DNA of 63,040 nucleotides, the filler included, from Sphacelaria rigidula (Eukaryota): NCBI GenBank assembly GCA_964200075.2. It is 7 parts of 7 records of this genome, joined end to end, with 100 filler letters (N's around TTAATTAATTAA, not from the genome) between each part and the next. Parts side by side here need not be neighbours in the genome. Positions count along the whole stretch, not along the records: positions 18,043 to 26,962 come from CAXNAA020009750.1; 6 more parts are not named here. One strand, given 5' to 3'. A program made the translations under genes and the position numbers. Within the stretch, counting starts at the first letter, position 1. Every line of letters begins with the position of its first letter. Positions 2,947 to 49,667 of this stretch are shown here, piece after piece. The notes beneath the pieces were generated by a model, which saw only the letters and a list, made by a program, of their open reading frames with translations, was not told the DNA's origin and did no database searches.

Positions 2947-3251
2947 CAGTGCTTCTCCACACTCTCAGCGATGGTGTTCAATGACTTTTTTGTCGGCCAA
3001 ATAAATGCCCCTCGGACGCGTAAATACTTCATCGCATTTTACCGACTACGTGAACTTACAGCACTGACCTGAACCGTCATTTCCCCTGCTATCACACCCA
3101 AAATCAGGAGAAATGACGGTTTCGGTCAGTGCTGTAAGCTCACATAGTCGGCAAAATGCGCTGAGAAAGTATGTACGCAATCGAGGGGCATTTATTTGGC
3201 CGACCAAAAAGTCATCGCGCACCGTTGCTGAACGTGTGGAGAAGTGCACCG
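2947..3251. mobile_element. Fold-back MITE with ~140-bp inverted arms
   Basis: Left arm cagtgcttctccacac...ccgtcatttcccctg is the reverse complement of caggagaaatgacgg...gtgtggagaagtgcaccg. Spacer about 16 nt. CAGTG start resembles Tc1 TIRs. Confidence 0.75.
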
Positions 3252-5496: not shown

Positions 5497-8400
5497 TTGA
5501 GACGTATTCCCATGCTGGTTGAAGGATCTTACTGTACCTGGAGGAAATATGAGGATGTGCTAGTGTCATTCAAGCCTTCCTGCAGTACGTTCCGTGAGAT
5601 GGTGTTATCATTGATGGATTGATGAATTGAGTGATTGATCGATCGATTGTCGCAGTTTGACCGACCCCCCCCCGGGATCCAGCCGTGGTCTCATGATGGA
5701 TGTACAAAAAATAGAACTGAAATACCCACTAGGGGAAAAACAAAACGGAAAATAAAAAGTCGAACTGAACGACGTAGTAGACTGAGACGTGAAAAGAAGA
5801 AAAAGCATTATCCTACACTACCCTACAATATGTGTCGTTCTATACGAGGCGGTTCCCCCGGAACTCAGTTGATAACTTCGAAACCGTCTGACGGGTGGCC
5901 ATGGGTTCAAATCTCGGAGCGATGGGGGATTCGTTTCTCACACAATATCTAACAGTGGAGAGCGATGATGTCGTGGGAACACAACATTCGACTCCACGGT
6001 CGACGAGGGGAAGGGACTGCTGAACCCCTTTCGCGATGAAAATAAAAAGCAAGTGCCGCAGAAGGAAGGTGCAGCACTGAAACAGACGGAAACCGAGAAA
6101 CTCTTGTGTTGACCTTCCTCCTGTGTGACCCCGGCTGGTGCGCTCACAAATACCGAAAGGTGTAGACCGGCGTCCAAAATAGATGGGACGACAATACACA
6201 CAACACACACTGTACCGCAGCCCCCGCAGTATGTTTACTTGCCTTGTGTGTTGTGAGTTTTGTTTGAGGCCATGCCTTTCGATGTAGCATGCGAGCATGT
6301 GAAGAACATACAAGTGCACAAACGAGTTGATGCCGAGGAGGCGCATCGTCGTGATCCGCGGCCACTTTGAAAAAAAGCTTGCCGTGTCTTGTTGACGGAT
6401 TTCAGGCCCCTAGTTTCGACGTCTCATTTATCGTCATTCTTGTCTCTTTCATGTAGGCCTTTTTGATCATGGACATATTGTCATGGTGAGCTATCACTGC
6501 CCTCGGAGTGGGTTTGTTCAACAACCGAAGTATCAACCCCTTGTGCGGTGCTGTCCCTATAGCCTTCGCAGCCGACTGGTGGTCCGCAGCACGGCTGCAG
6601 GGGCGGATGGTTCAGAGTACGTTGTTGTTTTCTCATCTCGGTTTGTTTATTTTCACTAGCGTCCCATCGTCTCGAGAATAAGATTGAAATTCCTAACGGC
6701 GTTACTGACACATTGATACATATAACAAATAACATTGAAGCTCGCAACGGCGTTACTGATCCGTACGTACGTGAGTGAGCAGTACGGCGTCCACTCTGAC
6801 GGATATAAGCTACATACATACTACAACGCTACCGTTGTAAAAATATACAAGAATACGGCAGACATACTACGACAGTACCGTTGTATACGACTGCCAAGAA
6901 CAAGCAATCGCTGTCAAGTCAGAATGAGTGCCAAGGTGGGAATCAAGATGTCATATCGTATCGCGCTGTCCATCGTCTTGGGCCATATTTTCCCCTCGGG
7001 TAAAATGTCTCGCCGTCAACGCTAATCCGCCATACCTCATCGTTTTCCCCCTTCATCACCATTCCAAGAATGGGTGTTTATCTCGCCATCTGTACGTACC
7101 CATAGCTCGCGAAGCGGTAAGTTCTTGACCCGACACGATTTTGTTTTTCACTTTACTGTACCGACACTTTCTACGATAGCCCCCCTTATGTCGATCGACA
7201 TAATAGTGGAAATCGGCTAATCAGCACTGATTCTACCCGACGTGCACTGCCGCTGTAGTTCCACGATAAACGGCGAAATTGTCGTGGAATCTAAAATGGC
7301 CCTGTGAGAAAATATTCACTCCCCGTTCGTGGTCATCGACGTATCTGTCATGTTTCGATCCGACTAGCGCTGCCGCTGTACGTTCGCTATGACGAGCGAA
7401 TTTGTAAATGTAGGAAATTGATACGTTACGACGCGACATAAACAGCCGTTCGTGGTGATCGGCAAATTTCAATGTTTCCCTCGCGCCATTTGTTTGGTTC
7501 TTGTGCTCAACGACGGTTTAATAAGTTTCACCTCTTTCATGGTGCAAATTTTGATACGTTGAATTTCGCGGACGACCCAACGTCCAAAGCCCCTCTGCAA
7601 TCGCTCATCGGTCAAATGGTCAAATTTTACTCCCCGGTCGTGATCGTCGGCGAATCGGTGAAATATTCCCACGTTTTCGCTCAAATTCCGATATGTTGCA
7701 TTTCTCGGTTGAGCCGACGTGTGTAGCTGCTCTTCAATCGTGCTCATGGGCAATTTTTCAAATTACTAACCCTAACCCTAACCCTTGAGTCAAACTTTGA
7801 CTCAACGGTCGACAAGGGGAAGGGAGTGCTGAACCCCTTTCGCGATGAAAAACAAAGGCAAGCATCGCTGAACGAAGGTGTACTATAAACACAAAACTAA
7901 ATCAAAGCTCCTGTGTTGACCTTCCTCCTGTGTGACCCCGGCCGGTGCGCCCACAAATACCAAAAGGCGTTGAGCGGCGCCCAGAATAGATGGGACGAAA
8001 ACACTCACACACACACCACGTCTCTATTGTTTTGTGCAGAGTGCGATACGTTGGATTTCTCGGAAGAGCCGACGTGTACAGCCGCCGTACGATCGTGCGT
8101 ATCGCTTATTTTTTCAAATTTTGCTCCCCGCGCATCCTCGTCGGCAAACTGGTAATTTTTCGCTCCAACGGAGGAACCGATATGTCGAGCTGTCTCGCCA
8201 CCACGCAACCCGTTCCCCATCACTATTTCTGGCGCCCCCAACACAGCCTCAATTGTGCTGTACATTCATGTATCGGCCCCTCTGATATCCATCAACGTCC
8301 CGAGTTTGGTGTAGTTGCTGAGAACGGTTTTCCCACCGGAGCTGCGAGCTGCGCTGCCAGCCTGCGACGCCGGAGACGCCAAGGAGGTCGCAAACGATGT

Positions 8401-8800
8401 AGCTTGCAGCTTGAACTGACTGCTTGAGCTCTTAGGACCTGATGCGACCTCCTTGGCGCCCTCAGCATCGCAGGCTGGCAGCACGTGGGAAGACGGAGGC
8501 ATGTTCCCGTCGACCCCCGGTGGGAGGTACCTGTATAACCCTGTGCCTTGAAGTCCCCCTCGACGGGAAACTCCTTCTCATCGACTAAACAACGCGCTCG
8601 ATCAGAGACGATGATGGATTTCACGGGGGTCGCCAGCAAAATATATCAACGCTCCTCTTGTGCGAAGGACCGCTGGTCTGTTCATTACCGTTTTGTCGAA
8701 ATATTTTCGCCCGCCCGCTGGTCTGATTTTGCGGCAAATGATCGCATAAGCGAAATATTTTCCGATTCATGTTGTCCTTACCTTGTCCAAAAAAATAAAA
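5497..8800 (+). repeat. Copy 2 of the segmental duplication, with extra insertions at ~5611-5808 and ~7766-8018
   Basis: Colinear with 60-2760. The two insertions are absent from copy 1. Confidence 0.9.
5611..5808 (-). mobile_element. 3' end of a retroposon family with a (TCAA)n tail; related copies ~46600-46688 (+), 47175-47270 (-), 62619-62760 (-)
   Basis: Shared gattgattg...gtcgca-ttt-ac-gacc-ccc-ggg-tccagccgtgg---catga motif. Inserted in duplication copy 2 only. Confidence 0.6.
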
Positions 8801-8921: not shown

Positions 8922-9021
8922 NNNNNNNNNNNNNNNNNNNNNNNNNNNNNNNNNNNNNNNNNNNNTTAATTAATTAANNNNNNNNNNNNNNNNNNNNNNN
9001 NNNNNNNNNNNNNNNNNNNNN
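8922..9021. other. Artificial contig linker (N44-TTAATTAATTAA-N44)
   Basis: Exactly 100 bp with a six-frame-stop 12-mer in the centre. Identical linkers recur every ~9,020 bp. Confidence 0.97.
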
Positions 9022-9079
9022 ACCGAGAGGTGCAGACTGGTGCCCAGAATAAATGGGACGACAACACACACACACACAC

Positions 9080-9352
9080 CGTACCCGCCCAATCCGGTAT
9101 TGTCAAAACTCATACCTACGATACCTATGATACCACGGTATTTCGAGATTTCCCCATACCTACCGTACCCGCCCAATCCGGTATTTTCAACACTCATACC
9201 TACGATACCTACGATACCAGGGTATTCCGAGATTTCAGTACCTACCGTATCCGCCCAATCCGGTATTGTCAAAACTCATACCTACGATACCTACGCATAT
9301 CACGGTATGGGATACCCCGGTAAATACCGGGGGTATACCCGGTATTTACCGA
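9080..9352 (+). repeat. 82-bp tandem array (~2.5 units) ending in a palindromic cap
   Basis: Unit cgtacccgcccaatccggtatt-tcaaa--tcatacctacgatacc-acgataccacggtatttcgagatttccatacctac. Cap is cggtaaataccggg-ggtata-cccggtatttaccg. Confidence 0.9.
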
Positions 9353-9871
9353 ACGCGATATACTCCCCACGATGCAGCAGCTGGTGCCAACCCACGCTGA
9401 GTCCACAAGTTGTCGAAGCAGGCACATCTTGTTTTCCCAAGTAATTAATACCCAGATTCTCCCTAAATTGCGGGTTTGGATTGATTCGAATGAATTATTC
9501 CGATGTTCTCTGATGTTTTGGTACGTGGATATGAATATTAGATGATCATTTGAAGGTATACATTGTTCCATGTCGAAGATGAGCATGATACGCAAAAATA
9601 TTCCATGTGCAAGCAAACAAGCGGGAAACACCCGAAAATGAGGAAAAACAAAAAAACGAGGGGTCGCAGGAGGCAAACAAAATACACAACAATGTGCCAA
9701 AATACCAATGAAATAACCTTCCATATTTATATACCGTAAATACTGCGCGATTGCCGGGTGCTCTGAATGAAAAAATACAATTAGACATAGAGGGGCAAAC
9801 CCTACTCTCACGTACTACTGCAGTGAAACGCTTCGCACTGCCAGATGACGGTTTTGAATTTGGTATAGAGG

Positions 9872-10684
9872 GTGATACAGGTACCCGGTACCGGTATTTG
9901 GGACATTTCATACCCCACTGATACCGACCCAACCCGGTGTTTTCAAATGTCATACAGTACCTACGATACCTACGATACCACGATATTTCGAGATTTCCAT
10001 ACCTGCCGTACCCGCTTAATCCGGTGTTTTCAAAGCTCATACCTGCGATACCCACGATACCACGGTATTTCGAGATTTCCATACCTACCGTACCCGCCCA
10101 ATCCGGTATTTTCAAATGTCATACCTACGACACCCACGATACCACGGTATTTCGAGATTTCCATACCTACCGTACCCGCCCAATCCGGTGTTTTCAACAC
10201 TCATACCTACGATACCCACGATACCACGGTATTTCGAGATTTCCATACCTACACCCGCCCAATGCGGGATTGTCAAATGTCATACCTACGATACCCACGA
10301 TACCACGGTATTTCGAGATTTCCATACCTACCGCACCCGCCCAATCCGGTATTTTCAAATGTCATACCTACGATACCCACGATACCACGGTATTTCGAGA
10401 TTTCCATACCTACCGTACCCGCCCAATGCGGTATTGTCAAATGTCATACCTATGATACCAGGGTATTTCGAGATTTCCATACCTACCGTAGCCGCCCAAT
10501 CCGGTATTGTCAAATATCATACCTACAATACCCACGATACCACGGTATTTCGAGATTTCCATACCTACCATACCCGCCCAATCCGGTATTGTCAAAACTC
10601 ATACCAATGATACCTACGCATACCACGGTATGGGATACCCCGGTAAATACCGGGGGTACTCTCGGTACGGTACCTTACCTACGG
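9872..10684 (+). repeat. 82-bp tandem array (~8-9 units) with the same terminal cap; probable non-autonomous element
   Basis: Period 82 (atacctaccg at 10081 and 10163). Ends cacggtatgggataccccggtaaataccgggggta, as does the 9080 array. Confidence 0.9.
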
Positions 10685-15271: not shown

Positions 15272-15360
15272 GGGGGGGGGGAGGGCGTACACACTCATTG
15301 TTTGCCTTAGTCATTTGGCCATTGAGCACGCATCCCTTTTGAGACGGGGCAGGACGGGGG
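15272..15360 (-). mobile_element. 3' terminal fragment of the LINE family, in a G-run context
   Basis: Matches 24144-24210 (gggcgtac...ttg-t-gccttagtc-tttg...gagacggggca). Confidence 0.7.
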
Positions 15361-17942: not shown

Positions 17943-18042
17943 NNNNNNNNNNNNNNNNNNNNNNNNNNNNNNNNNNNNNNNNNNNNTTAATTAATTAANN
18001 NNNNNNNNNNNNNNNNNNNNNNNNNNNNNNNNNNNNNNNNNN
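17943..18042. other. Artificial contig linker
   Basis: Same N44-TTAATTAATTAA-N44 structure. Confidence 0.97.
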
Positions 18043-18690
18043 CACTCATTCACCAAGCTCGAAGCGCGGTGGTGTGTTCGGCGAGTCGCATGAAGAGTGA
18101 GCTGCACCCTGCTGAGATTATTCGGCCCGAAGCCCACTGACTATCTTGCATTCGGATGGCAACCTCTAAGGAGTTGCTTTATTTTCTGGTATCGCCACTT
18201 CCAGAGACGGCCACGGCTTATACACTGCCTCATGCGTGTCTCACCATGAAAACACTACGTGGTACGATCATCCCCATCATGCGGAGTTGAGGTTCTCCCA
18301 CGCCGCACAACATGATCTAGCTCGACTGCCATCACGGTTACCGCAAAAAAAACGCAAGCGCGCAAAAAAACCGGTAACCCTGTTGCCCAGCTTCCGCAGT
18401 GAGTGGCGTGTTGGTGAGTCAGTTCAGTGTGGGAGAAGCAGTAAGATACAAGGGCAAGTGCATCCACGATGAAGTAATGATAGTGGTGTCTGGATTGAAG
18501 TCGAGGTTTATGAGATCCAGGAGACGGGTGTGGTGCGACTACCAGTTGGTGACAGCATCGCGAATCGATGTTGTCTGAGTGAGATCTTTGATAGCGTCAT
18601 CGCCGGCTGACGCCAACCCTAACGGGGGTCCACCCCTACATCGTCGGGACAAGGCACGCCGGGTTCTCGCCGGGCCAAGCTACAGGGGGG
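18043..18690 (-). mobile_element. Copy of the ~570-bp C-run-associated element (with a ~175-bp internal insertion), cut by the contig start
   Basis: Reverse-complement similarity to 49100-49570. Confidence 0.8.
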
Positions 18691-22348: not shown

Positions 22349-23830
22349 CAATATGTAATATATATTTCCCGCTCAATATGTTGACGCGTAGGGTGGTCAA
22401 TGTATATTGGGCGAGCAATATGATGGCACGAGAGAGGGCCAATATATGTTGGGCGAGCAATATGTCAAGGCTCGCGACATGCAATATATATCGACCGGAC
22501 AATATATCACGACACGCGCCACCTCAATATATATATTGGCCGAGTAGTATGTTGGTGCGAGAAGGCATCAATATATATATTTGTCGAGTAATATATTGGC
22601 TGCCACACGAGGTCAATATATATTGAGGATTCAATATACTCAACGCCCGAAGCGCCAGTATGTATTGCCGCCCCAATATGTCGTGCGTCAATGCGTCCAA
22701 TATATATTGGGCGGACAATACACGAGGAATGGACGGTCACAATACATACTGGCGTAGCAATATATTTTGATTTTCAACATGTAGATTGCAAAGTGTATTG
22801 GAATTAGTATGGTGGGCAACTCTATCTTCTCGGGCGCCATTGAAATATGTATCACCACATGCCGAAAACGCTCAATATATTCCTCCGCGAGCGTGTTCAA
22901 TATATATTGGCTGCACAATAGTTATGCGATGAGCGTGCACAATATATATTGGGAAAACAATATTTTTTCTCATGGTTCGCGTTCAATATATATTATGGTA
23001 ACGATATGCTACGCATCGCTTTGACTCAATGTATATTGACACTTGAATACATAAACGGCCGGCATGCACAATATATATTGAATGTTATATTCCCGGAGCA
23101 AAGGTATGTCCAATAGATATTGCCATACGTTACTTCATGACCATGACACGAGCAATATATTTTGTTGCTCCAATGTCTCCGAAGACATTTCAACACAATC
23201 CATATTGAAAGGACAGAATTTGAGCTGGCTCCAACACAAAGTATTGGTATCATATTGGAGCATGTTGTATCGTCCAGGGTATAATCAACACAGCCCCGGT
23301 GACCACAGGGGTACCAAAAGGCGCATATCGACCCGCGTCTTCTGTCATCGTGATGTTTAGCCAAGATATATCAGTTACATGCCGGGAAGGCGATGGGCGG
23401 CCCCGCACCGGTGGCCACTTCGGTATCAGGAGGCATATATTCCAGGTCGCCCCTTCTGTCACCATATTTTCTAACCAGTATGTATCTATATGTCAAACGC
23501 AGTCGACAACTCTCCGTAGTAATGCACGCGAACTTCTGCGGCTCCCTTTGAAGCTTTCCCCAATCTGCACGGGCTCCGGCATCCATCGCGTCTGGATCTT
23601 TCTTAGAGCGTACACAATGCTTGTGATATCCAATATATATATTGACCGGCCAATACATTGGCACCCACGCAGACCCAGTATATATTGACCGGTTAAAATG
23701 TTCTCATTAATGCGACTCTAATATATATTGGTCGTGCAATATGCTGTCGCCCACGCTGCCCCAATATACATTACGCCGGCAATATATCGCAAAATTCCAA
23801 TATGATCGACTAATATATATTGGAAACATA
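22349..23830. repeat. Array of palindromic CAATATATATTG motifs with ~42-bp period and unique spacers (clusters ~22349-23290 and ~23630-23830)
   Basis: Repeating CAATATATATTG-N6-CAATAT-N~18 units seen directly. Confidence 0.85.
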
Positions 23831-24143
23831 TTGTATAGTCCAGGGTGTGAAAAGGTTACGCCCTGCCTTATCGAGAGAGAAGAAAAAGCGACAAACGGAA
23901 CCAGCGTCCAAAATCTGCTGGGAACACTTTCTACGATAGCTCCCCCCCCCCAAAAAAAAGTGTCTGCTTTGGGGAGGCAAAATCCTCACATAAATCGAAA
24001 TAGAAGAAGCCAAGCACAACCAGCAGCCGGTAACGTTCTCGCCAATGTCGCCCATATGAGGCGCTTCAAGCAGCCTGAACCCAAACATCAGGCGCTGTAT
24101 GTCCATTTTTTTCGTGACACTTTTGGGCTGGGGTTGGGGGGGG

Positions 24144-25381
24144 CGTACTAATTTGTTGCTCGCCTTAGTCGTTTGATGATTGACCACGTATCTCTTTCGA
24201 GACGGGGCACCGTCCCTACTTCTAATAGAGACATCTTCAACATTCCGGCGCTCATTACGTTTCTTCCATAGCTCATTATGTTTCTTCCATACATGACACG
24301 AAAATATTTTACATATCTTATCCCTGTCCTGTTTCGCCGTGTCTGGCCACCATCTATCTCGTAGTATAACCATCGTTTTCTCCCTACTGTCTAATGCATC
24401 AGACGATTTCATGCTACCTTCGTTGACATCCCGCATTTCCCCCCCTAGAACGTGCCGTTCCTCCTTGTATAGTTCACATTTTGCCACTTTATGACTTCTG
24501 CTCTCTCTTGCTTTGCCACAGAGACAGTTCTGTCCATCTACTTCCTCCTCCTTTCGACTGCTGGTATATCCTTTTCTTTTCTCTGGTAGGTCCAGGTCCT
24601 CCACCCGAAATCGCAGTTCCATTGTTTTCGCAGCGTCCATGGGGCCATGCAGATATGTTTTAATCCCGATCCCCTCTCGCGACCCCCCGTATATCTCCAG
24701 GTGTTCTTCCTCGTCTACCGTACGTCTGAGCGCTCCTTCTCCCCTCGTTTCTATTTTATCTCTTCCTTTTGCCGTGTACCCCGGGTCTTCATCTATGGAC
24801 AGTATTTCGTCTTGATGTCCTCCTATCTCCTTCAATCCTTTCTCGACTTCTTTATCCCGTCTTATAGCACGCCCTTTTGTACGTTTCTTCCATACAGCTT
24901 TGTCAACCATAGCTGGCAGTCTCTTTCTCTGCATATTCTTTAAGCTGTATTGCCATTTCAATTTTCTCGTGTCTCTGTTTGTTTTCAGTGAGTACATTCC
25001 CAGCTCTGCTCTCAGTGCTGTAATACTCGTCGTTTTCGAGCATTCAAGTATTTTCTTTGTTGCTGACATGTGTACTGTTTCTCACTTCTTCACCAACTTC
25101 ACCTTCCCCTCCCATACTTCTTCTCCATATGTTAGCTTTGGTACGATCACGTTCATCAGGATACATATCTCAATCCTTGTATCTAGTTGCGAATTTTTGA
25201 GGATCACGTCCATCCTTCCTATCTGTGCCTTACCCTTTTCTAATATTTTGTTCACGTGTGCATCCCAAGAACAGTGTTTTGAGATCTCTACGCCAATGTA
25301 TGTATACTGGTCTACAATCGGCAGTTCCTCTTCTCCCCACTTCCACTTCAACTCTGCCGAATTTTTCTTATTTTTCGAGGG
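24144..25381 (-). mobile_element. 5'-truncated non-LTR retrotransposon (LINE): RT thumb/C-terminal region, interrupted by a stop at 25082-25084; 14-bp TSD GGGGTTGGGGGGGG
   Basis: ORFs read LPIVDQYTYIGVEI..SWDAHVNKI..PKLTYGEEVW*..KKILECSKTTSITALRAELGMYSL..RKLKW..CLCGKARESRSHKVAKCELY, typical of LINE ORF2 C-termini. TSD at 24130-24143 and 25382-25395. Confidence 0.9.
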
Positions 25382-26792
25382 GGGGTTGGGGGGGGGGGGG
25401 GGGGGGGTTATCGTAGAAAGCGTCTGGGCGGGTCTATGGTTGCGGCGACTAATCCATATGCTGCTTCCGGACGGAGGCTTGTTCCATTCTACGCTTCTTT
25501 TCTTGTCTCGGTCAGACACGGCCTGAAGCCCTGATTATCGAGACAAGAACAAAATAGCGACAAAAGAGGCGAGCGTACAAACGCTGGGCGTTGATTGATC
25601 GTCGGACGGGTCATTCAGAGAACTCCAGTCCGGTTGGTTGTCCTACAGCTCAAGTGCATCACGCCTGGCGCTAACTCTTGCTCATTCAACTACAGTGCTG
25701 CGTGTTTCACGGCAATCCGTTGGGTATTGAGAGAGGGTCGGCCGCGTTTACGCAGCAAAACTTTGCTCAGGGCCCGTCTTATCAAGAGAACACTTTTGAA
25801 GGAGAGCTTTGATTTTGTTCATGATTGTGACTGTTGACACTTTTTATCGTTGATTCGTTCAAGGCTGGTGCCATATGCTTCAGGCCCTTCAAACAAAGTT
25901 CATGACGAATCATCACGTAGGGAACAATACGCCGAGCATGCGAAACGCAACGTATATTGGTTGCGATGCGTGGACCGTTCGGGTTATCATGAGACCTGAG
26001 GCACACACCAGAAGTGCACAGCTATCTGTCGGGGGTGTGCCGTGCTGGTCTGGTCCCGTGTTTTCACGGCGTAATGTTCTCATATTGGGAACATTTTCCT
26101 CCTTAAATGAACATGGCGGGTATTTCTGATGATGATGAGTTTTTGAACAGTAACGACCATGTCTGTCGGAAATAAAGTCAATAAAAGTTCTTGTCTCGTT
26201 GAAAGACGGCCTCGAGATGGAGTCGTTGCCCGTTTGTGGGTGTTGTAGGATCGTTAACCACGGAACTGTATTTTTTCCGACTTCTCCAACTTTTTGAGAT
26301 GAAAGAATTCCATCCCCGAAAAATGCGAGGGGATTTTCAAGTAGGGGTGCACTTTCCGACTCAAACGTTTTTTGAGACTGCACAGTAAGGTCCAGATGAT
26401 GGTCATCGACAGACTCCGCAAGTACAGAGCCTCAGAAACAAATTTCACACCCCTACCGTAGAAGCGCTCCGTGACAGCAAAATCCTCCACCAGGGCAAGG
26501 AATTAAACAACTTGAGGCTCACCACATATTACTCGGAGAATCCAGCGTTGGATTTCATTCTCGGCATTTCATTTTCAAAAATGTCGGAAATGTTTCCGAG
26601 AACCTCGATGACGTCTGAAAGACCGGTGATTAGCTCCTTGACGGCCGCTATCTGGTAGAAATCATCGTGTCTCATTCAGTGTCGATCCGATGTCTTCAAG
26701 CCTCAAAACCTCGTACTCACTTGATCAATAGATACGGCTCAAGCCATTCATTGTCTATCCTGGAGAGGTAAAATCAAAATTTTACAGTCAGT

Positions 26793-26962: not shown

Positions 26963-27062
26963 NNNNNNNNNNNNNNNNNNNNNNNNNNNNNNNNNNNNNN
27001 NNNNNNTTAATTAATTAANNNNNNNNNNNNNNNNNNNNNNNNNNNNNNNNNNNNNNNNNNNN
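26963..27062. other. Artificial contig linker
   Basis: Same N44-TTAATTAATTAA-N44 structure. Confidence 0.97.
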
Positions 27063-27449
27063 CCCACCCTCCTCCTCGGGATGAGTGCGTGGTGTCGCGG
27101 GATCAGCCCGTATACCCCCCCCCCCCGGTACACGCCGTACAGTTTGGTATCATCGCGGATTTGATTGGATCATGATCAAGTCTAGATCATCGGGGCACTG
27201 CGTGCTATGTTTTAGAAACACGCGCTGCACTGCACGTCAACATATATACACGTACACATTGGTACAGAAGATGCAGTACAACACAACATGCCCGGTCTCG
27301 CTGCACAGTAAATGCATGGGCTCTTTCGCGGGGGCAAGGGGCTTCATCTATCGGAGCACAATATTCGCCGCTAGGGGACGTTTGGCTTGGTTCTCCAATT
27401 TGTATTCCTCTACCCGCCGTGTGTATATGTATGTGTGTATGTTGAGCAG

Positions 27450-27651
27450 CTCGTGGGCGCGTGAACAGGCCGATTCCTACGAGTTGTCTGCCTTCGCGAT
27501 CGAAGGAGACACCTTCGACCTGTGCGGGGGGCACGCCGCGTCGGAGGGCTGGTACCATTACCACAACACTCCTGGCTGTCTGCAGGAGCAGGCCATGGTT
27601 GCGGCAGGCTTGACGACAAGCGATCACTCCGCGCAGATAGGGTGGTCATAT
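27450..27651 (+). CDS. YHYH-domain protein, exon a
   Basis: agcag|C TCG...TAT|gtgggt; SWAREQADSYELSAFAIEGDTFDLCGGHAASEGWYHYHNTPGCL...HSAQIGWSY contains D-x-C-x-GH and YHYH. Confidence 0.88.
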
Positions 27652-28230
27652 GTGGGTGAAACTAGTCCTGGCGGGTGGGAAGGGCGGGGGGGTAAGGCAG
27701 GGGTATAGTCGGTAAAAAGGGAACTCTCCTGGAGTGGCCATCGTACTATTTTTTGTCCGATTTGAAGCTGTCGGACTGCTTGACAACGCGTCTACAGCAA
27801 GCAGGAAAATGAAGCCGGATGCTACCGCTTCACCCTTCTGTTCTTGTTACAAACCCCGGTGTACACTCGTCAATACTAGAGTAGTCATGCGCGGGTGCCC
27901 CCGTAGCAAAAGGGGACAGCGAGCAGGTCGAATGAGGGCCAAAAGCGTAGGGGACGAGGAAGGTCGTCGATGTCGCAAGCACTCTCAGATGTGGCATTTG
28001 ATCGACGGTCGTTGATGGTCTGTGGAAACACACGCATCGGACAGTATGCGCGTGACGTCATACCTATCCAGTAGTAGGTATACAGTACCTTTTTGAGGGT
28101 CTGTGGTCCACCTCGGCATTTACTGCCTGAGGTTTGTGGGTGCAATGCTGAATCCAACCCCATTCCTATTTTATCAGCTCGTGCCTGAATCTGCTCTCCC
28201 GTTACTCTGTTGCCACTCTGCATGGTTCAT

Positions 28231-28497
28231 GAGTCATGCTACTATAGGGGGAGGAGGGGGGGATTTTGGGCCGTCTTCTTTCACGAAAATCCACTTCAGT
28301 CGCCGTTTAAAGCAGCCAACAGTTATTTGAACGCGCTTGCTCCCGACAAATATCGCTCTTTCATACTGCTTTACATCGCTTCTACCCAAAAACAAGCGCA
28401 CCGCGAGTGTTTCAGATTGTTTGACGCATCTATGAGCACATGTTCCCGTGGAATCGAATCGAACACCGCCCCCCCCCCCCCTATCGTAGCATGGCTC
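28231..28497. mobile_element. MITE with GAGTCATGCTAC-ATAGGGGG TIRs and 4-bp TSD TCAT (Sola2-like termini)
   Basis: TIRs and TCAT flanks seen directly. Second copy at 33608-33860. Confidence 0.75.
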
Positions 28498-28889: not shown

Positions 28890-29295
28890 GAGTGCACTGA
28901 TTATCATGCATGCCGTAGTCGTACGACTATTGCCCTTGCATCCCTACCAAGCCGGGACGGGAGCACACCGGGATTTTTCCGGAACAGGCACGCAGTCAAT
29001 CACCAAGCACAAAGCGCCGTGATTTGTTCGGCGAATAGCATGAGGAGTGAGCTGCATCCTGCTCAGGTTGTTCGGCTCGAAGCGTATTGATTATATTGCA
29101 TGTGGATGGCAGCCTCGAATTGAGTTGCTTCATTTTCTGGTATCGCCACTTGAAGGAGCAGCCACGGGTTACTACTCTGCGTCGTGTGTATGGGGGGGGT
29201 GTACTCGTGATCTTGCGTGCTGGAGTCATAAGACCGTTGACCTCGCATCCCTACGAGGCCGGGACGGAGCACGTCGGGCTTTCACCTAACCAGGG
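28890..29295 (-). mobile_element. Two adjacent truncated copies of the C-run-associated element (~28890-29172 and ~29199-29292)
   Basis: Both begin just after G-runs, with gtg-actgat-atcatgcatgcc and gtgtactcgtgatcttgc, and match 49380-49667 in reverse. Confidence 0.75.
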
Positions 29296-29992: not shown

Positions 29993-31611
29993 GTGAGTAT
30001 CACTCGCACGAAACGTTCGCCACAACTACAAAAAGCAAGCGATTGCGAAGCCGGGAGCCAAGAGGTCCGCGGCCTTTTTTCCAGGCATCACGGATTCACT
30101 TTTGATTCGTCTGTTCCCGTCACGCCGGTAATCTGTAGTTACTGTTCGCCTTCGTGTGCGTGTTTGTGTGTGTTATGCTGCCATCCCATCTAGTCTGGAC
30201 CCCAGTCTACACCTGTCGGTGTATGTGAGCGCATCAGTCGGGGTCTCACAGGAGAAAGGCCAACCCAAGATTTTTTTCATTATTATTTTGTTTTTGTTCT
30301 AGTGCTCCACCTTCCTTCTGCGGTGCTTGCCTTAATTTTTATATATCGCGAGAGGGCTTCAGTAGTCCCTTTCCCTCGTCGACGGTGACTTTGTTTGGAA
30401 ACATAAGAGAAAAAATGGACGTTTCACTGGCACGAACTTTTCCGTGCTTTTTTGTAGTTCTTGTCCGATCGTTCATTAGAATTGACAGTCGAACTGCAAA
30501 GCGGTTCGTGTGCGGTTTGACGGAGCCCCTGTCTCACATACGGTTCGTGCAGGTTTTGCCGGTACTTTATCAGACAGCACATGCGAGGGGCTGTCTTGTG
30601 CAGCCGGTCGGTGGCTCTTTCATCAGCATTTGTAGTGAACAACTTGTTTTGGGATAATTGGAGCAGATGCATGGTAGAAATCGATATGTTCCCAGGTGGT
30701 ACACTGAGCCTGACAATATCCAACATAGCAACATGTTTTGCTTGCACTCATACTGAAGATTAATGGTAGTACCAGTACTCTGAGGTATCGGCGGGTATGT
30801 ATGCGGAATGACCTTTAATATGTTGAACTACGGTGCACCAATCCCTCAAAGCACTCCGCAGAGCTACCGGACAAGTGTCTTCGGTTTTGTGGCCCTTCCA
30901 GGGAGTATGTTCGCACCGTAAGTGACGTACGAGCACACCTCGCCATTCAGGTGAGGTCTATGGCATAACTGCCATTGGTACTTGCCCTGTTGCGTGTTTT
31001 CCCCGCCTTTTTCTGTCACGACAGAGATTCATCACCATCTCCTACCGTAAAACGTCATCCGGCCGCAGGCCCCCACGTTCTGCATACCGTGACGAGATCC
31101 TACTGGAGCTATCAGTCGGAGGAAGATATACACAGTTGGGGTGGTCAACTTCATGTCATTTCAGCCTGCTGGGCAGTCACACAGACCAAACGTTTGAACC
31201 GCTTGCACAAAAGCAGCTATGATCTGTCTGGTGAATATTTCGTGCTAGCGCCCCGGTCCCCGCTTTCCTCTTTCCCTTCACTCTCCCGCCGAGATGATCA
31301 CGGAGTCGCGGAAAGATGGACGGGGGCACAGCTGTGGAATGTGAAACATCTCTGAAACGCGAAAGCGGCTATGTGACTCCTCCTACCCCCCCCCCCCCCC
31401 CCCCCCCCCCCCGCCAGCTCTCTCCCTCCCCCCCCCCCCCCACGCCAAAATAACCCCCACAACCAACCATCCGCCCCCTCTTATAANNNNNNNNNNGGGC
31501 GGGGGGGAAGCTGTGGAATGGTAAACAACCCCGCAACCGGAAAAGGGCTTTGTGGCTCCCCCCCCCCCCCCCCCCCCCCCTCCCCTTCACAAGTAGTTTG
31601 CTTTCCACCCC

Positions 31612-33607: not shown

Positions 33608-33860
33608 GAGTCATGCTGTCACAGAGGGGGAGGGGGGGGTATTTTGGGCCATTTTCTCCACGAAATTGCAATTTGAATCGTCGTTGAAAGCAGCAAAGGT
33701 TGTTCGACCGTGCGTGTTGCCCACAAATAACGTCCATTCATACTACGTGCTACCGATTTCAAATAAATTCAATCGCACCGCGAGTGTATTAGGTCGTCTG
33801 ACACGCCTGTGAGCCTTGTTTTCATGGAATCAAGCCCCCCCTACGATCGTAGCATGATTC
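33608..33860. mobile_element. MITE of the same family as 28231-28497, 4-bp TSD ACTA
   Basis: acta|gagtcatgct...tagcatgattc|acta; internal similarity to 28231-28497. Confidence 0.75.
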
Positions 33861-34914: not shown

Positions 34915-35982
34915 TGGCGACATCGAAAAGGCTGTTGACAGCATGCAACTGTCAACGATGCGTCTTCTTTTTTTTTTCCAACTAGGGCATTCAAAGTGTT
35001 GCATGTTCTCCCGTATATTTCCTCCCGCCATCTCCCGCTTTCCATTGCGCCGTTCTTGCTGGCGTATGGCGGGGGGCTGAAGGGGGGCTGTGAAAATGAA
35101 AAAAGTGGGGAAAATGTGTGGAAGGTGAGACGGAAAGTTGAAAGTACGGTTGGTGTTGGCATTGGCTACAGGCTTCATGTGACACGCCCCGTAGTCCTCT
35201 ACTTTTGTCGAAACCGTAGTTTGGGCTCATCATCAATGACGTGTTACGTTTCACAGCAGCTGAGACGACCCCTTGGTGCGTTGTACAGATATGAAAATTA
35301 CAGTATACTCGAAACCCCCTGCAGTGTCTGCTACGCATCGTTTCTGGATTACTTATTGTGAGTGTGTGTTGTGGCGACAGTTTTATACTGTCCGATAGTT
35401 TTGTCGTCAGATTAATATAGCCCTACGCTATAACTCTCCAAAGCGACCCACCTCAAGTGAGCCTGCCAGCTTGACATTGTGTTTGATTTGAGTTCGGCCG
35501 AGTGAAGCGCCAAGTTCGAAATACATCTTTTTTTATTCCGCAAGTGTTTAACCAACACTGTGCAACCTCTGCGAGCTTTCTTGTCAGAGTTGGTTTCACC
35601 CGTTGAACCTATTGTTCCTGTCACGTTGAGAGTTGAGCACTGTGTACTTTGTACACAAGCCACGACATCCATATAATATTATCAACACATACCCAACTCT
35701 TGTTTTCGAGAGAACGCTTCGATATCGTCACGTTGTGTTTTAGGATAAAAGGAATATCGTTCAATGACCATCTGCAATAGGTCTTGGCGGGTAACCTCCC
35801 AAGGGTATGCACTTAATGCCACCGAGAATCTGGCTTCGTTTTTTGCGCGTACATATATAGCTTTTGGTTGTCGGTACTGAAGCACTCGTTTTCTTCGGAG
35901 ATGTAGAAGTGGGTGTACTCATGATAATGCATGCCATAGTCATCAGACCATTGACCTCGCATCCCTACAAAGCCGTGACGGA

Positions 35983-36082
35983 NNNNNNNNNNNNNNNNNN
36001 NNNNNNNNNNNNNNNNNNNNNNNNNNTTAATTAATTAANNNNNNNNNNNNNNNNNNNNNNNNNNNNNNNNNNNNNNNNNNNN
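35983..36082. other. Artificial contig linker
   Basis: Same N44-TTAATTAATTAA-N44 structure. Confidence 0.97.
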
Positions 36083-36114
36083 AAAAAAAAACGCCCCCCC
36101 CCCCCCCCCCCCCG

Positions 36115-36530
36115 CCCAAAGCCGGGCGAAAACCCGGCGCGCTCCGTCCTGGCTTGGTAGGGACGGACCCCCCATGGGTTTGGCATCGGTTGGCAATGAC
36201 ACTGTAAGACACGCCACTCACTGCGTAAGCCAGGCAACGTGGTTACCGGTATTTCTTTGCGCGCTTGCATTTTTTTGCGATAATCATGATGGTGGTCAAG
36301 CTAGATCGTATGGTGCAGGGTGGAAGAACCTCAACGCCGCGCCAAGGGGCTGATCATTCTACGTAGTTTGTAAATGGGGAGACACCCATGAGGCAGCGTG
36401 GAAGTCGTGGCTGTCTCTGGAAGTGGCGGTACCAGAAAATGAAGCAACTCATTGAGGGCTGTCATCCACATCTAAGATCATCAGTACGCTTCGGGCCGAA
36501 CAATCTTAGCAGATGGATCACCGCTCACAG
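36115..36530 (+). mobile_element. 5' part of the C-run-associated element, directly after a poly(C) run
   Basis: Colinear with 49100-49510. Confidence 0.8.
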
Positions 36531-39472: not shown

Positions 39473-40900
39473 GTGGGTTGATTGATCGCGTGACTTGTGT
39501 TGACGGTGTCATGTGTGTGTGTGTGTGTGTATGTTTGTGTGTTACCTGTTTCTTTTAATGTTTTATCCCTGTTTATTTTCCTGTTCGTGATTTTTCTGGG
39601 TCCTCTTTTTTGATTTTTTGTTTACTTATACCCTATTTTGGATAGTTAGCCTGTGACCACGGAAGGCGTCCGCATCAGGTACCAAAAACGGAAATAGAAG
39701 TACTGCGCTAGTGTCGGAACGTTTTTTTTTTGTGTGACGACACCAACAGCGGCAGCAGCAGCAACATGTATATGCTCAAGATATTTTTTTATGCATATAT
39801 ATATATATATATACATACCTTTTTTTTTCCCCCGTGCATAACTGTATCGAAACATCTTTGGTCGTTCGCTCTTTGGTCTGTGTGGACATCTCTCGCCTCC
39901 TCTGTATGTATCTCAGGGCGACTGCTCCATTTTCTTTTTCATTTTATTTATGACTCTTGTTTGCGCGTGCGTCCCTACTCTACCGTGGCACGGTGGGTTC
40001 GTACCAGCTCGGGACCATCATTTCCATGGTTGACACGTTTTTGAAATAACGGTAATTCTAACCCTAACCGTAACCGAGAACCCGCAGCCAATAGAGGTGC
40101 TGAGGATGCCCAAGGCAAAGTGCACGTTGGAAGAGGCCTCATATTGGGGGCTGAGGCGCCGAGTTGGATGAAAAAACGTTCTGCAGACACGCCAGGAAGC
40201 ACTTGTCAACCCAACTAAAGATCCGAATCTCGGTGTTTCCTCTCAGATCAGGCAATGTCAACCATAGATAGAACTGGCCTTGGACTGGGACAAACTCTAC
40301 TGGTACCGTGGTACGGTGAATACCACCCCTAAATAACACGCGCGGGTGATGAGTTCTGTGGACCCGATTTTTTTGTCGTCCGGGGATGTTGGTCAGGGAG
40401 GTGATATACGACGTGCTCCGGTACGGCACAGTAGATACCGACATGGTGCCGAGAGTAGTCGAATAGTCGTCACCTACAGTAGGCGGTGCTTTTTAGGGGT
40501 GATATTCAGCGTATGAGTGTTATGCTGCTGTCGCGAACGCTCCCTCGTAACTCTGTGCTATTGTTGTCATTGTATGCTTCTCATGTCATTTTGTCGCAGT
40601 GGAGATACAAATAAAATAAAAATAAAATTCAGTATCTTGTATTTGTTGTTGTCGTGATCCAATGTTTCTGTTGTCGAAGTTTGTTTTTCTCTGGACCTTG
40701 AGCTTCTTCTGGTAACCGGGGCTGCGAACCTCAGTTCAAACGCGAGGAGTTGAGTAGCTGCTGGGGGCGCAACTTGCATCTGGGGGGGTAAATCTAGGTG
40801 TTCCGATGAAAAATGAAGAGATCTCATGAGAAGGGGGGGGGGGGGGAAGGAAGAAAGGTGAACCGCTTTCTTGTTTTGTGTGTCCGCAAAACAATCAAAG

Positions 40901-41159: not shown

Positions 41160-41379
41160 GTAGTAGAGAGTTTCGGGAAATGGTTTTTCGCCTTAGAGTC
41201 AGAGCGGAAGAACTTCAGAGGGTCAAGTTTTGAAGGTTCAGCGTCTGTGTTGTCATTCCATCTGGCGTCCAGGATAGATGGAATGACAACACACACTCTG
41301 AACCTTTAGAGGTCTCCACTCAGAACTTCTTCCACTCTGACTCTGAGGCGAATAACCATTTCCCGAAACTCTCTAATAC
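41160..41379 (+). ncRNA. Intronic ~220-nt near-perfect hairpin (candidate miRNA/siRNA precursor)
   Basis: ~104-nt arms pair almost continuously, several as G-U pairs on the + strand. Loop ggcgtccaggat. Confidence 0.4.
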
Positions 41380-42771: not shown

Positions 42772-43565
42772 ATGCTAACGCTGACGCTAACGCTAACCTT
42801 AACCCCAACCCAGAGCGCACCCGAGGATCTTCGGGCAAGGGAGGTGTAAACATGGAGTGTCTCGGACGCAACGTGTGTTTTTTTTTGTCTCATATCAATC
42901 AGCCCCTCCTCGTTTTAGCGCCGCTTTGAAACAAAAGGGGTGTTGCGTAGACGGCGCCCACGCTGGACGAGCTCTCGGGACTGTGATCCCCCGTAAAGAT
43001 CCAGATACGATGATCCACACTAAAAACAAGTAGTATATATTTCAACCATTGTTTATTATGCTGCCGAACTCGGGTATACTCCTACCGTACGAAACGCCTC
43101 CATTTGAAGGCCGATGAAGTGATGGCATGTTATGTGTACTGGCAGCACGTGCCCCCCCTTTTTTTCCCGTCCCCGCTGTCTTTTTTTGTTCGTTTGTTCG
43201 GGGCAATTGTTTTTCCTGTGTTTTTTTCTGGTGATAGCAGTGGTAGTGTCGAAGGCCGTTGGTTTGTTTTATGAAGTTATTTTGCCCATCAGGTGGTTTT
43301 TACGCCAGAGCAATGCACCTTGTTTTCCCTTCCAACGCATGTGCGGATAGAAAAGATTAAAAAAGAGAACCGCAAACCCCCCCACCCAAACCACGCCGCC
43401 CGCGGCCCCACCCCGGACCCGCCCGCGGCACACCNNNNNNNNNNTTTTTTATGTTTTTGTCTCTTGCGTGTTTTTTTAACCTCAAATCAACACCCCTCTT
43501 CTCCCCCCCCTCCCACCGCTGGGAAAAAAAAAAAAAAAAAAAAAACCCCCCCCCCCCCCCCCCCC

Positions 43566-43662
43566 TTATGACTATGGCATGCATGATGAGTACACCCCCC
43601 CCCCACCGGTCAATGGTCAAACGACTAAGGCAAGCAACAAATGAGTACGCCCCCCCCCACCG
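43566..43662 (+). mobile_element. Adjacent 3' stubs of the C-run element and of the LINE; the LINE stub is flanked by the TSD ccccccccaccg
   Basis: ...gcatgatgagtaca(C)10accg-gtcaatggtcaaacgactaaggcaagcaacaaatgagtacg-(C)8accg. Confidence 0.7.
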
Positions 43663-43953: not shown

Positions 43954-44544
43954 GTATGTGGCGTATGACTCTTTTTTCGGAGGGCAGTTGTTGTGATCTT
44001 CGGGGTCGGGATCGCGTACATGGAGCATCTGCTTTACAGACCCGGCCCGCTATATATATAGTGAGAAGCATGCCAATGACAAACCTGAAGGGTTGATTTG
44101 ATGACTTGAAACACGTCGAAAGTTGCGGCCATCGAGTGCAAAGAAAGAAGGCATCAGGAAAGATCGCAGAGTGATTCTTTCCTGGCCTTGAAGGAAATTC
44201 TGCGGTTCAGCATCTCTATGATGAACACGGTGAACTAAGCCTTGGCCCAATTCCATGAGTTTTAGTAGCGAGTCGCGTCTGTCTGTGCTGGACTGTTTTC
44301 GTGGTCGTCGTCATCGTCTTCGATAATGGAGTGATGGCCGCGATAACCCCTTCCCAGAACAGTGGCTGATTTGAGGAGCCCTAATCTACATGTAAATCAG
44401 AATGACAACAGTCGAGCACACCGACCAGCTGGGAATCCCCACGCTTGGGATCGTTTTCGCCAATGTTGCCCATATAAGGCGTTTTCAAGCAGTCCAAAAC
44501 CAGCTATCGTGGCGCTGTATGGCGATTTTCCTCGCGTCACTTGT

Positions 44545-44640
44545 GGGGCTGGTTTGGGGGCGTACTCATTGGTGTGCTTGACTTGGTCGTTTGACCATTG
44601 ACCCACGCACCCCTTTCGAGATGGAGCACTGCTTGTTTGC
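44545..44640 (-). mobile_element. 3' fragment of the LINE family
   Basis: gggggcgtactcattgg...ggtcgtttgaccattgacc...tttcgagatggagcac matches 24144-24215. Confidence 0.7.
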
Positions 44641-44734
44641 GGGGGGAGCTATCTATCGCGGCATCACTCATCTGCTTTGTTTTTTGTTTTTTTTTCCCTT
44701 CCGTGGATGTACATGTGTTTTGAACGCGCGGCAG

Positions 44735-44897: not shown

Positions 44898-45002
44898 GTG
44901 AAGTGGCGTTAGTTACCCTTCGGTTACATTCCCGGGAAGGAAGGGGGGGGGGGGGGGTACTCGTAATCTTGCATGCCATAGTCATAAGACCATTGATCTC
45001 GC

Positions 45003-45102
45003 NNNNNNNNNNNNNNNNNNNNNNNNNNNNNNNNNNNNNNNNNNNNTTAATTAATTAANNNNNNNNNNNNNNNNNNNNNNNNNNNNNNNNNNNNNNNNNN
45101 NN
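45003..45102. other. Artificial contig linker
   Basis: Same N44-TTAATTAATTAA-N44 structure. Confidence 0.97.
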
Positions 45103-45323
45103 ACTTCCGTTGTCCCTAACAAGGACGCTTTTAAATAAAATTTTGGGGGGAGAAACGGCCCCAAATCCCCCCCCCCCCCCCCCCCTATCGGCATGCATGA
45201 TCATGAGTACACCCCCCTATCGTAGCATGACTGACTCTTCTTTTTTTTCCACCCGCGACGGAGCGAACGTGTCATCAATGATTCGGAGGCACGGGCATGC
45301 ACAAAACGAACCCCCCCACAAAC

Positions 45324-45421
45324 GAGCCTGGTCCGGCGGAAACCCGGCGTGCTCCGTCCCGGCTTTGTAGGGATGCGAGGTCAATGGTCTTATGACTATG
45401 GCAGGCATGATCATGAGTACA
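45324..45421 (+). mobile_element. 5'-truncated copy of the C-run element with the 12-bp TSD ccccccacaaac
   Basis: TSD at 45312-45323 and 45422-45433. Ends catgatcatgagtaca. Confidence 0.8.
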
Positions 45422-47416: not shown

Positions 47417-47857
47417 CACGGGATCTTACCATTTGGGGATGGATCTTCTATTGGGGATGAGAAACCCTGAGGATAAAAAATCTTTGTATCCGCACCAAAT
47501 CTTCGAAATATGGTTCCATTTCTTCACCTACTGATAGCTATTAACAGCTGCTAGACGCCATCGAAATTTGATTATCGATCACCGAAATGTTGGGGTCGTA
47601 GGTGAAAAACCAATTTTGGGCAATTCCCGGTATCCGAACGGACGCCAAAATGGTTCTGAAAATTGTTTTTCCATCTAGGACCCCATCATTTTGGTGATCG
47701 AAATCCAAATTTCGATGGCGTATAGCAGTTGTCAGTAACTATCAGTAGGTGAAGAAATGGAACCATATTCCGAAGATTTGGTGGATACGAAGATTTAAAT
47801 TCTCCCGGTTTCTCATCCCCCAATAAATGATCCACCCCCAATTTGAAAAATCCCGTG
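47417..47857. mobile_element. Fold-back MITE with ~200-bp TIRs and CACGG...CCGTG termini (CMC/Chapaev-like ends)
   Basis: cacgggat...ttggggatgagaaacc...atatggttccatttcttcacctactgatag mirrored by ctatcagtaggtgaagaaatggaaccatat...atcccgtg. A related fragment lies at 54122-54175. Confidence 0.8.
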
Positions 47858-49099: not shown

Positions 49100-49667
49100 A
49101 TCAGCCTGGTCCGACGAGAACCCGGCGTGCTCCGTCTCGGCTCTGAAGCGGCGGACCCTCGATGGGGTTGGCGTCCGTTGGCGATGACGCTATAAAACAC
49201 GCCACTCACTACGTAAGCTAGGTAACCAGGTTACCTATTGTTTTTTTGCGCGCTTGCGTTTTTTTTGCGGTAACCATGATGGTAGTCGAGCTAGATCATG
49301 TTGTGCGGGTTGGAGAACCTCAACTTCGCTCAATGGGAATGATTGAACCACGTAGTGTTTATGTGGTGAGACACACATGAGGCAGTGTATCAGCCGTGGC
49401 TGTCTCTGGAAGTGGCAATACCAGAAAATGAAGCGACTCATTGGAGACTGTCATCCAAATGCAAGATGATCAGTAGGCTTCGGGCCCAACAATCTTAGCA
49501 GGATTCAGCTCATCCTTCATGCGACTCGCCGAACACACCACGGCACTTCGCCCTTGGCGATTGAGTGCGAGCCCGGTCCGGTGGAAATCTTGCCTGCTCC
49601 GTCTCGGCTTTGTAGGGATGTGAGGTCGATGGTCTGATGACTATGGCATGCATGATCATGAGTACAC
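49100..49667 (+). mobile_element. Full-length ~570-bp non-coding retroposon-like element with the 13-bp TSD CCCTACTCCAGAA
   Basis: TSD at 49087-49099 and ~49669-49681. Internal ~45-bp direct repeat at ~49106 and ~49572. 3' end catgatcatgagtaca then a C-run. Confidence 0.85.

Follow-up and report, generated by a model that had tools for sequence, protein, structure and literature searches.

Does a transposon that passes directly into a run of C's carry those C's as its own tail, or did it find them in its target? This question is raised by a 63,040-nucleotide stretch of DNA from Sphacelaria rigidula (GenBank assembly GCA_964200075.2), here called the window, in which a copy of a long interspersed nuclear element (LINE), termed a1 and assigned to family A, abuts such a run. 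A preliminary description of this DNA had reported a LINE end without a poly(A) tail that leads straight into C's, a target-site duplication around it and three further 3' stubs next to C/G runs, and had proposed a preference of the family for homopolymer-C targets, owing either to a C-rich 3' end of its RNA or to endonuclease specificity. In our assessment, the segment 24144-25378 is very probably a dead, 5'-truncated LINE of the apurinic/apyrimidinic endonuclease (APE) type and of the brown-algal RTE-X kind, which was inserted into a C-run through target-primed reverse transcription (TPRT).

The window is composed of seven pieces of ~8,920 bp joined by spacers and is not contiguous DNA; repeats that stop at a spacer have been cut by a piece boundary, and copies of a second family, B, are cut in this manner by three of the six spacers. 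The G+C content of the window is ~48%, two further gaps of 10 N each lie at 31487-31496 and 43435-43444, and repeat families are common to the pieces. Repeats were found by self-BLAST of the window in 1.2-kb chunks, combined with a listing of all C/G runs and their flanks. The resulting junction sample comprises 12 visible 3' ends (four of family A and eight of family B), and both ends are visible in nine copies. The chance of CCC at a random window position (0.0175) served as the background, and database relatives were drawn from the best 150 representatives of an all-protein search.

The LINE copy, its 3' end and its partner

On the minus strand, a1 forms one reading frame of 412 codons, which is broken because of a single in-frame TGA at 25082-25084. 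Residues 967-1360 (the last 394) of the 1360-residue database protein P0001 align to it with 62.6% identity (tblastn, E 3e-149), and a1 is the only coding fragment of the P0001 type that tblastn detects in the window. The copy holds the C-terminal ~400 amino acids, comprising the end of the reverse transcriptase (RT) together with a linker and a Cys/His motif, whereas the endonuclease (EN) and most of the RT are missing. Accordingly, a Pfam scan of a1 gave no RT match because the copy is too C-terminal, and the endonuclease is missing because of the 5' truncation. Both domains occur in P0001 and P0002, full-length relatives that carry Exo_endo_phos (an APE-like endonuclease) and RVT_1 (E 1e-30 to 2e-32 for the latter). 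The RT regions of these two proteins match the structures of human L1 ORF2p and R2, so that the LINE type of the RT is recognized through them, a1 itself keeping the RT end alone. The closest database proteins are 1328-1360 residues long, have a single EN-RT architecture and share 58-62% identity with a1; the named matches are all entered as "unnamed protein product" of Ectocarpus sp. CCAP 1310/34. Because protein identity reaches only 58-62%, family A would be distinct from the families of these nearest relatives. Judged from its sequence, a1 thus appears to be an APE-type LINE of a brown-algal group that has been truncated at its 5' end, and the ~60% identity to its nearest relatives suggests a brown alga other than Ectocarpus. 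An open reading frame (ORF) from 23810 to 25081 stays open for ~110 codons past the LINE end; it was rejected as meaningful coding, as it runs through the host element X1 described below.

The end of a1 reads ...AACAAATTAGTACG on the minus strand and leads at 24144 directly into C8AAC4 (plus strand GGGGTTGGGGGGGG), with the terminal codons ...AAC AAA TTA GTACG. In a second copy, the stub a4, the terminus is AAA-TGA-GTACG. The stop is placed at this TGA because P0001 and P0002 end in ...KASNK; the family A ORF therefore stops 5 nt before the element end, leaving a 3' untranslated region (UTR) of 5 nt. The motif AATKAGTACG has three exact matches in the window, at 24144-24153 (-), 43640-43649 (+) and 44561-44570 (-). 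The last of these belongs to stub a2, which also has the terminal motif ...AATGAGTACG, with an extra base or divergence upstream. The fourth stub end, at 15286 (-), is diverged and reads ...AATGAGTGTGTACG. None of the 12 visible 3' ends in the window is followed by an A-run.

Family B is a 567-bp non-coding element, represented at full length by b1. Its terminus, ...GGTCAATGGTCTTATGACTATGGCATGCATGATCATGAGTACA, and the final ~67 nt of family A are homologous, with 55-66% identity, and this shared 3' sequence suggests recognition of a specific 3' end. With about ten copies or stubs, family B outnumbers family A in the window. Rfam and tRNA scans for the origin of its head gave no matches and no genes, respectively. 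The first ~40 nt of the full-length element (49100-49140) repeat the segment 49571-49612, ~95 nt from its own 3' end, and the 98-bp copy at 45324-45421 consists of that 3' unit alone; it may represent a short subfamily, like the 188-bp RTEX-N2 of the Ectocarpus notes. In addition, a minus-strand copy of B at 18043-18681 is interrupted at 18413-18575 by ~160 bp without a match to other B copies.

C-runs at the junctions and in the target

At least three C's directly follow all 12 visible 3' ends, in runs of 8, 5, 3, 9, 5, 6, 8, 4, 15, 3, 10 and 6 nt. Against the background frequency, the chance of 12 CCC's in 12 ends would be ~8e-22 if the C's were unconnected with insertion. The position of these runs is resolved by the target-site duplications. 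In local alignment, the exact 14/14 duplication match of a1 begins at base 0 of the 3' flank; on the 5' side, three extra C's stand between the duplication and the first base of the element, and these may be extra nucleotides or reflect drift in homopolymer length. Exact duplications of 11-14 bp, each opening at its 5' start with a C-run that gives way to unique bases, surround five of the nine two-ended copies (a1, a4, b1, b2 and b8; Table 1). Since the duplication begins with the C-run in these five copies, the target carried the run before insertion. A second line of evidence leads to the same result. Copies with lengths between 21 bp and 1235 bp have one 3' end in common; because the 5' truncation points vary in this way, the C-run on the 5' side is not element sequence and must have been in the target. 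The C-run was thus present in the target before insertion. Together, the 5' truncation, the fixed 3' end and the variable 11-14-bp duplications are the hallmarks of TPRT.

Run lengths at the two sides of the uninterrupted copies with exact duplications (a1, a4, b2 and b8) are 20/8, 10/9, 7/6 and 19/6 nt (5'/3'). Such 5' runs, none of them shorter than its 3' counterpart, fit a bottom-strand nick inside the G-run, because the entire run stays in the 5' copy of the duplication and only the part downstream of the nick in the 3' copy. Short runs are sufficient, the shortest 3' runs having three to five C's (b1 and b6). A strictly site-specific LINE with one target sequence was also considered and rejected: the bases flanking the C-run differ among copies (ACCG, ACAAAC, TATCG, AACCCC and TACTCCAGAA), and only the run itself is shared.

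All the observations listed in the preliminary description are borne out by the sequence. The terminus AAT(T/G)AGTACG passes without interruption into C8AAC4, the duplication given for a1 at 24130-24143 and 25382-25395 is exact in all 14 positions, and that of the stub at 43609-43650 (a4) is an exact C9ACCG. All three additional stubs, a2, a3 and a4, adjoin C/G runs, the end of a3 being diverged. The absence of a poly(A) tail holds insofar as no A-run occurs at any 3' end, but it does not extend to a (C)n tail, a short form of which may be concealed in the 3' run.

An element-encoded (C)n tail without any target preference would offer another account of the junctions, provided that the C-runs on the 5' sides are the tails of older neighbours. 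The supplementary notes on Ectocarpus families do record "(C)n 3'", and (CAA)n and (CA)n tails are given there for further LINEs (PMC12477816). Furthermore, long C/G runs are oddly frequent in the window, with 11 runs of at least 12 nt compared with three for A/T (the longest is C27 at 31386-31412), and an older tail does precede some of the 5' runs, such as that of a4, behind the tail of b7. However, such neighbours would not account for the five copies in which the 5' C-run is followed by the same unique bases as on the 3' side, placing the run within the duplication. The 5' runs are also not shorter than the 3' runs, those of a1, b8 and b2 come after unrelated sequence and not after a LINE tail, and two empty paralogues already hold the run. 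We consider a pure tail unlikely.

These empty sites are provided by host elements. Stub b8 sits in Z3, one of three related elements that resemble miniature inverted-repeat transposable elements (MITEs), and the filled site reads C19-TATCG-(21-bp stub b8)-C6-TATCG-TAGCATGAC. The corresponding positions without an insertion carry the run as well, as C13-TATCGTAGCATGG in Z1 and C7-..CGTAGCATGA in Z2; these sites are paralogues of the filled site and not orthologues. The preliminary description had proposed that empty sites lacking the run would overturn a target preference. Within the limits of paralogous sites, Z1 and Z2 speak for the preference, as do the run inside the duplication in five of nine copies and the 5' runs that equal or exceed the 3' runs.

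The host of a1 is likewise a MITE-like unit, X1, whose subterminal homopolymer forms the host C-run, and its homologue X2 carries stub a2 in the same run. X1 and X2 both represent a unit of ~190 bp whose ends are short and inverted. This arrangement invites the explanation that a larger composite repeat or segmental duplication includes the C-run and its flank, and that a1 and a2 (flanks 24034-24143 and 44452-44555) descend from one insertion and would be uninformative about targeting. The flanks of the two copies are indeed 77% identical over 181 bp across the junction (24034-24210 and 44452-44629), their divergence is about equal to that of the LINE parts, and both LINE copies occupy the same place in X1 and X2. 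On the other hand, the duplications differ (C8AAC4 and ~C5AAACCAGC), as do the 5' truncation points (1235 bp and ~70 bp of element retained), and the same C-run junction recurs at ten other 3' ends in unrelated flanks. A shared origin is very unlikely on this evidence. Because both duplications and truncation points differ, a1 and a2 read as two insertions that took place independently in the same kind of run, here one and the same homologous run.

Copies in the databases point in the same direction. Among the best 150 representatives, 18 reach the end of the ORF, and 12 of these are of the A type. Six of the 12 stop at ...SNK, and all six that lack the stop read into Pro-containing sequence (RVRPPPPS, LVLPPPPA, YAPPPPT, QGRPHPPSP, CVRPHH and CVPRPRP). 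Such read-through corresponds to C-rich DNA, because a C-run encodes proline in every frame. In four proteins (P0147, P0072, P0151 and P0067), a tail is followed by poly-Pro and then by a second tail or a 5'-truncated body. This order agrees with two tandem arrays in the window, namely, b7 and a4 parted by C-runs at 43546-43662, and b3, C8 and b4 at 28891-29294. The read-through copies also bear on the suspicion that the C/G runs arose as artefacts of sequencing or assembly, such as poly-G from two-colour chemistry. Some long runs do adjoin N gaps, and homopolymer lengths are error-prone; nevertheless, an artefact would not place exact duplications with unique bases around elements, nor lead unrelated database copies into poly-Pro, and the feature has been curated in a separate Ectocarpus assembly, as its supplementary notes record (PMC12477816). 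An artefact is hardly credible.

Several observations weigh against insertion of an RTE-X LINE into C-runs, or limit how far this interpretation can be taken. The sample is small, as the composite window of 63 kb supplies 12 3' ends. A clean unique duplication is missing in four of the nine two-ended copies: b7 has homopolymer only (C20/C10), a2 matches in 11 of 13 positions, and the 5' flanks of a3 and b3, although C-rich, show no clean repeat. Within a homopolymer, C's templated by the RNA are indistinguishable from target C's, and the position of the nick is equally unplaceable. At b1, two C's on the 3' side lie beyond the exact match and could be a tail. The other six of the 18 end-reaching database representatives, which belong to distant subfamilies or are frame-shifted, have no Pro-run; the only long overhang among them, that of P0011 from a more distant subfamily, begins CKTKEVLVMTPN. 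At 5' junctions, PPP occurs in five of 42 N-terminal overhangs and in three of 69 controls, a difference that is not significant (one-sided Fisher p = 0.13); we read one of the three controls with PPP, P0148, as an internally deleted 3' end. From eight 3' ends, RNAalifold yielded two small hairpins (-8.9 kcal/mol, with two of 14 pairs compensated), which is too weak for a conserved 3' RNA recognition structure, and none is claimed. By a hand tally, 25 of the 38 C/G runs of at least 7 nt lie away from A or B junctions; C-runs therefore have other causes too. Finally, we infer the RTE-X label from the blastp notes of the Ectocarpus paper and from shared features, and it should be taken as provisional.

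Host elements and other features of the window

The elements of the X and Z groups are ~190-270 bp long and have ~16-bp inverted ends (GAGTCATGCTACGATA-like) with a homopolymer directly inward. These homopolymers are arranged as G(n)...C(n) in Z and as C(n)...G(n) in X, and they are the runs hit by the LINEs. Apparent 4-bp duplications surround Z1 (TCAT) and Z2 (ACTA). No match to either group was found in the covered parts of the Ectocarpus transposable element (TE) table in the supplement of PMC12477816. The window has the motif CTTTCTACGATA(G) before a C-run at three places, 7166-7185, 23927-23951 and 25388-25420. The latter two are the ends of X1, and the first is possibly the solitary end of a related element. 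An interpretation of the X and Z ends as flip/flop hairpins was dropped, as it was without evidence. C/G runs away from LINE and partner junctions, such as those at 31386-31580 and 40833-40846, are unexplained.

Further features lie outside these families. By self-comparison, a tandem array at 9078-10631 has a unit of ~82 bp with 84-93% identity between copies. The first piece contains a duplicated segment of ~2.5 kb (176-2758 and 5807-8740, 72-84% identity), and three long, nearly perfect inverted repeats with ~81% identity are found at 2952-3244, 41160-41379 and 47417-47857. On the plus strand, two open frames resemble Pfam entries weakly, one (56784-58157) a mitochondrial carrier repeat (E 4e-5) and the other (27085-27708) a YHYH domain (E 2.5e-6); both are probably host-gene exons.

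Table 1. LINE and partner copies, their duplications, host elements and spacers, with positions counted along the whole window.
Feature	Position	Strand	Details
a1, 5'-truncated family A LINE copy	24144..25378	minus	1235 bp; tblastn and translation; duplication C8AAC4, 14 bp, exact
a1 3' duplication copy, C8AAC4 on element strand	24130..24143	minus	exact 14/14
a1 5' duplication copy	25382..25395	minus	upstream run continues, C20 in all (25388-25407)
Three extra C's between 5' duplication and first a1 base	25379..25381	minus	local alignment: match ends 3 nt before junction
Family A stop-codon position	24149..24151	minus	TTA in a1, TGA in a4; GTACG alone before C-run
a2, ~70-bp family A 3' stub	44561..44630	minus	C5 after end; degenerate 13-bp duplication, 11/13
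a3, ~65-bp diverged family A 3' stub	15286..15355	minus	CCCTC10 at 3' side, C8AC6TTTC5 at 5' side; no clean duplication
a4, 41-bp family A 3' stub	43609..43649	plus	duplication C9ACCG, 13 bp, exact, at 43596-43608 and 43650-43662
b1, full-length family B	49100..49666	plus	567 bp; end ...CATGATCATGAGTACA; duplication CCCTACTCCAGAA, 13 bp, exact, at 49087-49099 and 49669-49681
b2, 98-bp family B copy	45324..45421	plus	duplication C6ACAAAC, 12 bp, exact
b3 and b4, family B copies in tandem	28891..29294	minus	b3 ~29200-29294, then C8, then b4 28891-29189; C-rich sequence after
b5, family B 3' end	44958..45002	minus	followed by C15; 5' side cut by piece boundary
b6, family B 3' end	35914..35982	minus	followed by CCCAC; cut by piece boundary
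b7, 29-bp family B stub	43566..43594	plus	between C20 and C10
b8, 21-bp family B stub	45191..45211	plus	duplication C6TATCG, 11 bp, exact; in C-run of inverted-repeat element Z3
Family B copy of full-length type	36094..36512	plus	5' end directly after C20; 3' part lost
X1, host MITE-like inverted-repeat unit	23924..25423		ends ACACTTTCTACGATAGCT-C10 and G12..TTATCGTAGAAAGCGT; inverted repeat 28 nt, 89% complementary; alignment with X2
X2, homologue of X1	44325..44668		stub a2 in same subterminal run; alignment with X1
Z1, MITE-like element	28231-28497
Z2, MITE-like element	33608-33860
Z3, MITE-like element	45103-45235		partial
Spacers, 100 bp each, ~9,020 bp apart	8922-9021, 17943-18042, 26963-27062, 35983-36082, 45003-45102, 54022-54121		N44-TTAATTAATTAA-N44

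A possible insertion cycle and its relation to known elements

The junctions are compatible with the following pathway. The endonuclease would nick the bottom strand inside a G-run, and the freed, G-ended 3'-OH would pair with a small number of C's at the RNA's 3' end, which could stem from read-through into the C-run flanking every donor copy. The cDNA synthesis would then begin at ...GUAC(G/A), and the top strand would be cut 11-14 bp downstream. Each insertion would leave a C-run on both sides and in this manner renew its own target; the runs left on both sides, serving as new targets, would explain the tandem stubs. In such a pathway, a preference of the endonuclease and pairing between primer and template would be indistinguishable from sequence alone. 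It is offered only tentatively, as a proposal that we doubt more than we favour, that this homopolymer-C TPRT cycle renews its own target and that the family and its partner are a main cause of the excess of long C/G homopolymers in the genome.

Mammalian LINE-1 nicks its target at TTTT/AA and has a poly(A) tail. Like family A, it combines TPRT with 5' truncation, variable duplications of ~11-14 bp and a partner mobilized in trans, its endonuclease is of the APE type, as in the full-length relatives of a1, and its duplications start with a homopolymer that is able to pair with the RNA 3' end. Family A differs from it in that the homopolymer is C and not A, in the lack of a long tail, and in its single ORF and 5-nt 3' UTR. 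Moreover, in none of the four uninterrupted copies with exact duplications does the 3' run exceed the 5' run, and the 3' sequence is common to LINE and partner. RTE-type LINEs have very short 3' UTRs and simple-repeat tails. They share with family A the single EN-RT ORF, as found in its relatives, the minimal 3' UTR, a repeat in place of poly(A) and partners that resemble short interspersed nuclear elements and share the tail; in family A, however, the repeat unit is a single base and was demonstrably in the target before insertion. The mechanism would thus be closest to the LINE-1 scheme, in which the nick is T-rich and the duplication opens A-rich, with C replacing A, and would also be a mononucleotide version of the simple-repeat tails of RTE elements. 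Certain LINEs of the R1 and Tx1 clades have telomeric, (AC)n or (TC)n repeats as their targets. Like family A, these microsatellite- or repeat-specific LINEs enter repeats of low complexity with which the 3' end of their RNA pairs; family A would belong to another clade, targets a homopolymer and is content with as few as three to five C's.

The nearest known counterparts are the RTE-X families of Ectocarpus. In a TE study published in Genome Biology in 2025, RTE-X was the most abundant LINE group, and its most abundant single family was RTEX-N1_Ec32, a non-autonomous element of ~600 bp whose 3' end is common with that of RTEX-1/2 (PMC12477816). Supplementary file 1 describes RTEX-1_Ec32 as "single EN-RT ORF; (C)n 3'" with a "C-rich" target-site duplication, and RTEX-2_Ec32 by "(C)n termini/TSD", TSD denoting the duplication (PMC12477816). 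For RTEX-N1_Ec32, the notes give 607 bp, 83% identity to RTEX-1/2 over the 3' 60 bp, "can be present in tandem" and a "C-rich" duplication; the best blastp matches of the RTE-X families are RTEX-4_NV and RTEX-1_BF, and RTE-1/2_Ec32 have (CAA)n tails (PMC12477816). According to these table entries, RTEX-1/2/N1_Ec32 resemble families A and B in the single EN-RT ORF found in the relatives, the "(C)n 3'" end, the "C-rich" duplication and the brown-algal host. As listed there, RTEX-N1_Ec32 further resembles family B (567 bp) in being a non-autonomous partner of ~600 bp, in having only the 3' end in common with its LINE and in occurring in tandem. The tails of A and B are 55-66% identical over ~67 nt, compared with the 83% listed for RTEX-N1 and RTEX-1/2. 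The match between the two sets of families is one of table descriptions and not of consensus sequences. Features of the RTE-X type seen here are the single EN-RT ORF in relatives, the 5-nt 3' UTR and the lack of poly(A).

In the main text of the same paper, the term "C-rich" has no occurrence, and the passages covered contain no discussion of targeting (PMC12477816). Literature searches, in which the signs in "poly(C)" are unsearchable, returned no other account or mechanistic treatment of a C-homopolymer LINE target beyond the Ectocarpus supplement. The preliminary description had called the mode of insertion unusual, which is a fair characterization; it had nonetheless been recorded before, as the Ectocarpus TE library lists (C)n ends and C-rich duplications for RTE-X. 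Hence, the C-run habit is already on record for related families in the form of curation notes, to which the present analysis adds evidence from the junctions themselves that the run was in the target.

For genome annotation, these results carry a warning, as C/G runs beside ...GAGTAC(G/A) are insertion junctions and not errors. The exact duplications, paralogous empty sites and read-through copies provide evidence at the level of junctions that an entire group of brown-algal LINEs, together with a very abundant partner, chooses C-runs. This offers a natural contrast to LINE-1 on the question of how TPRT targets are chosen, by endonuclease specificity or by primer-template pairing. If the proposed pathway is true, these elements would be a first case for studying the specificity of an APE endonuclease or of a primer for G/C homopolymers, and a self-renewing target would explain both the arrays of tandem stubs and the long C/G homopolymers in these genomes.

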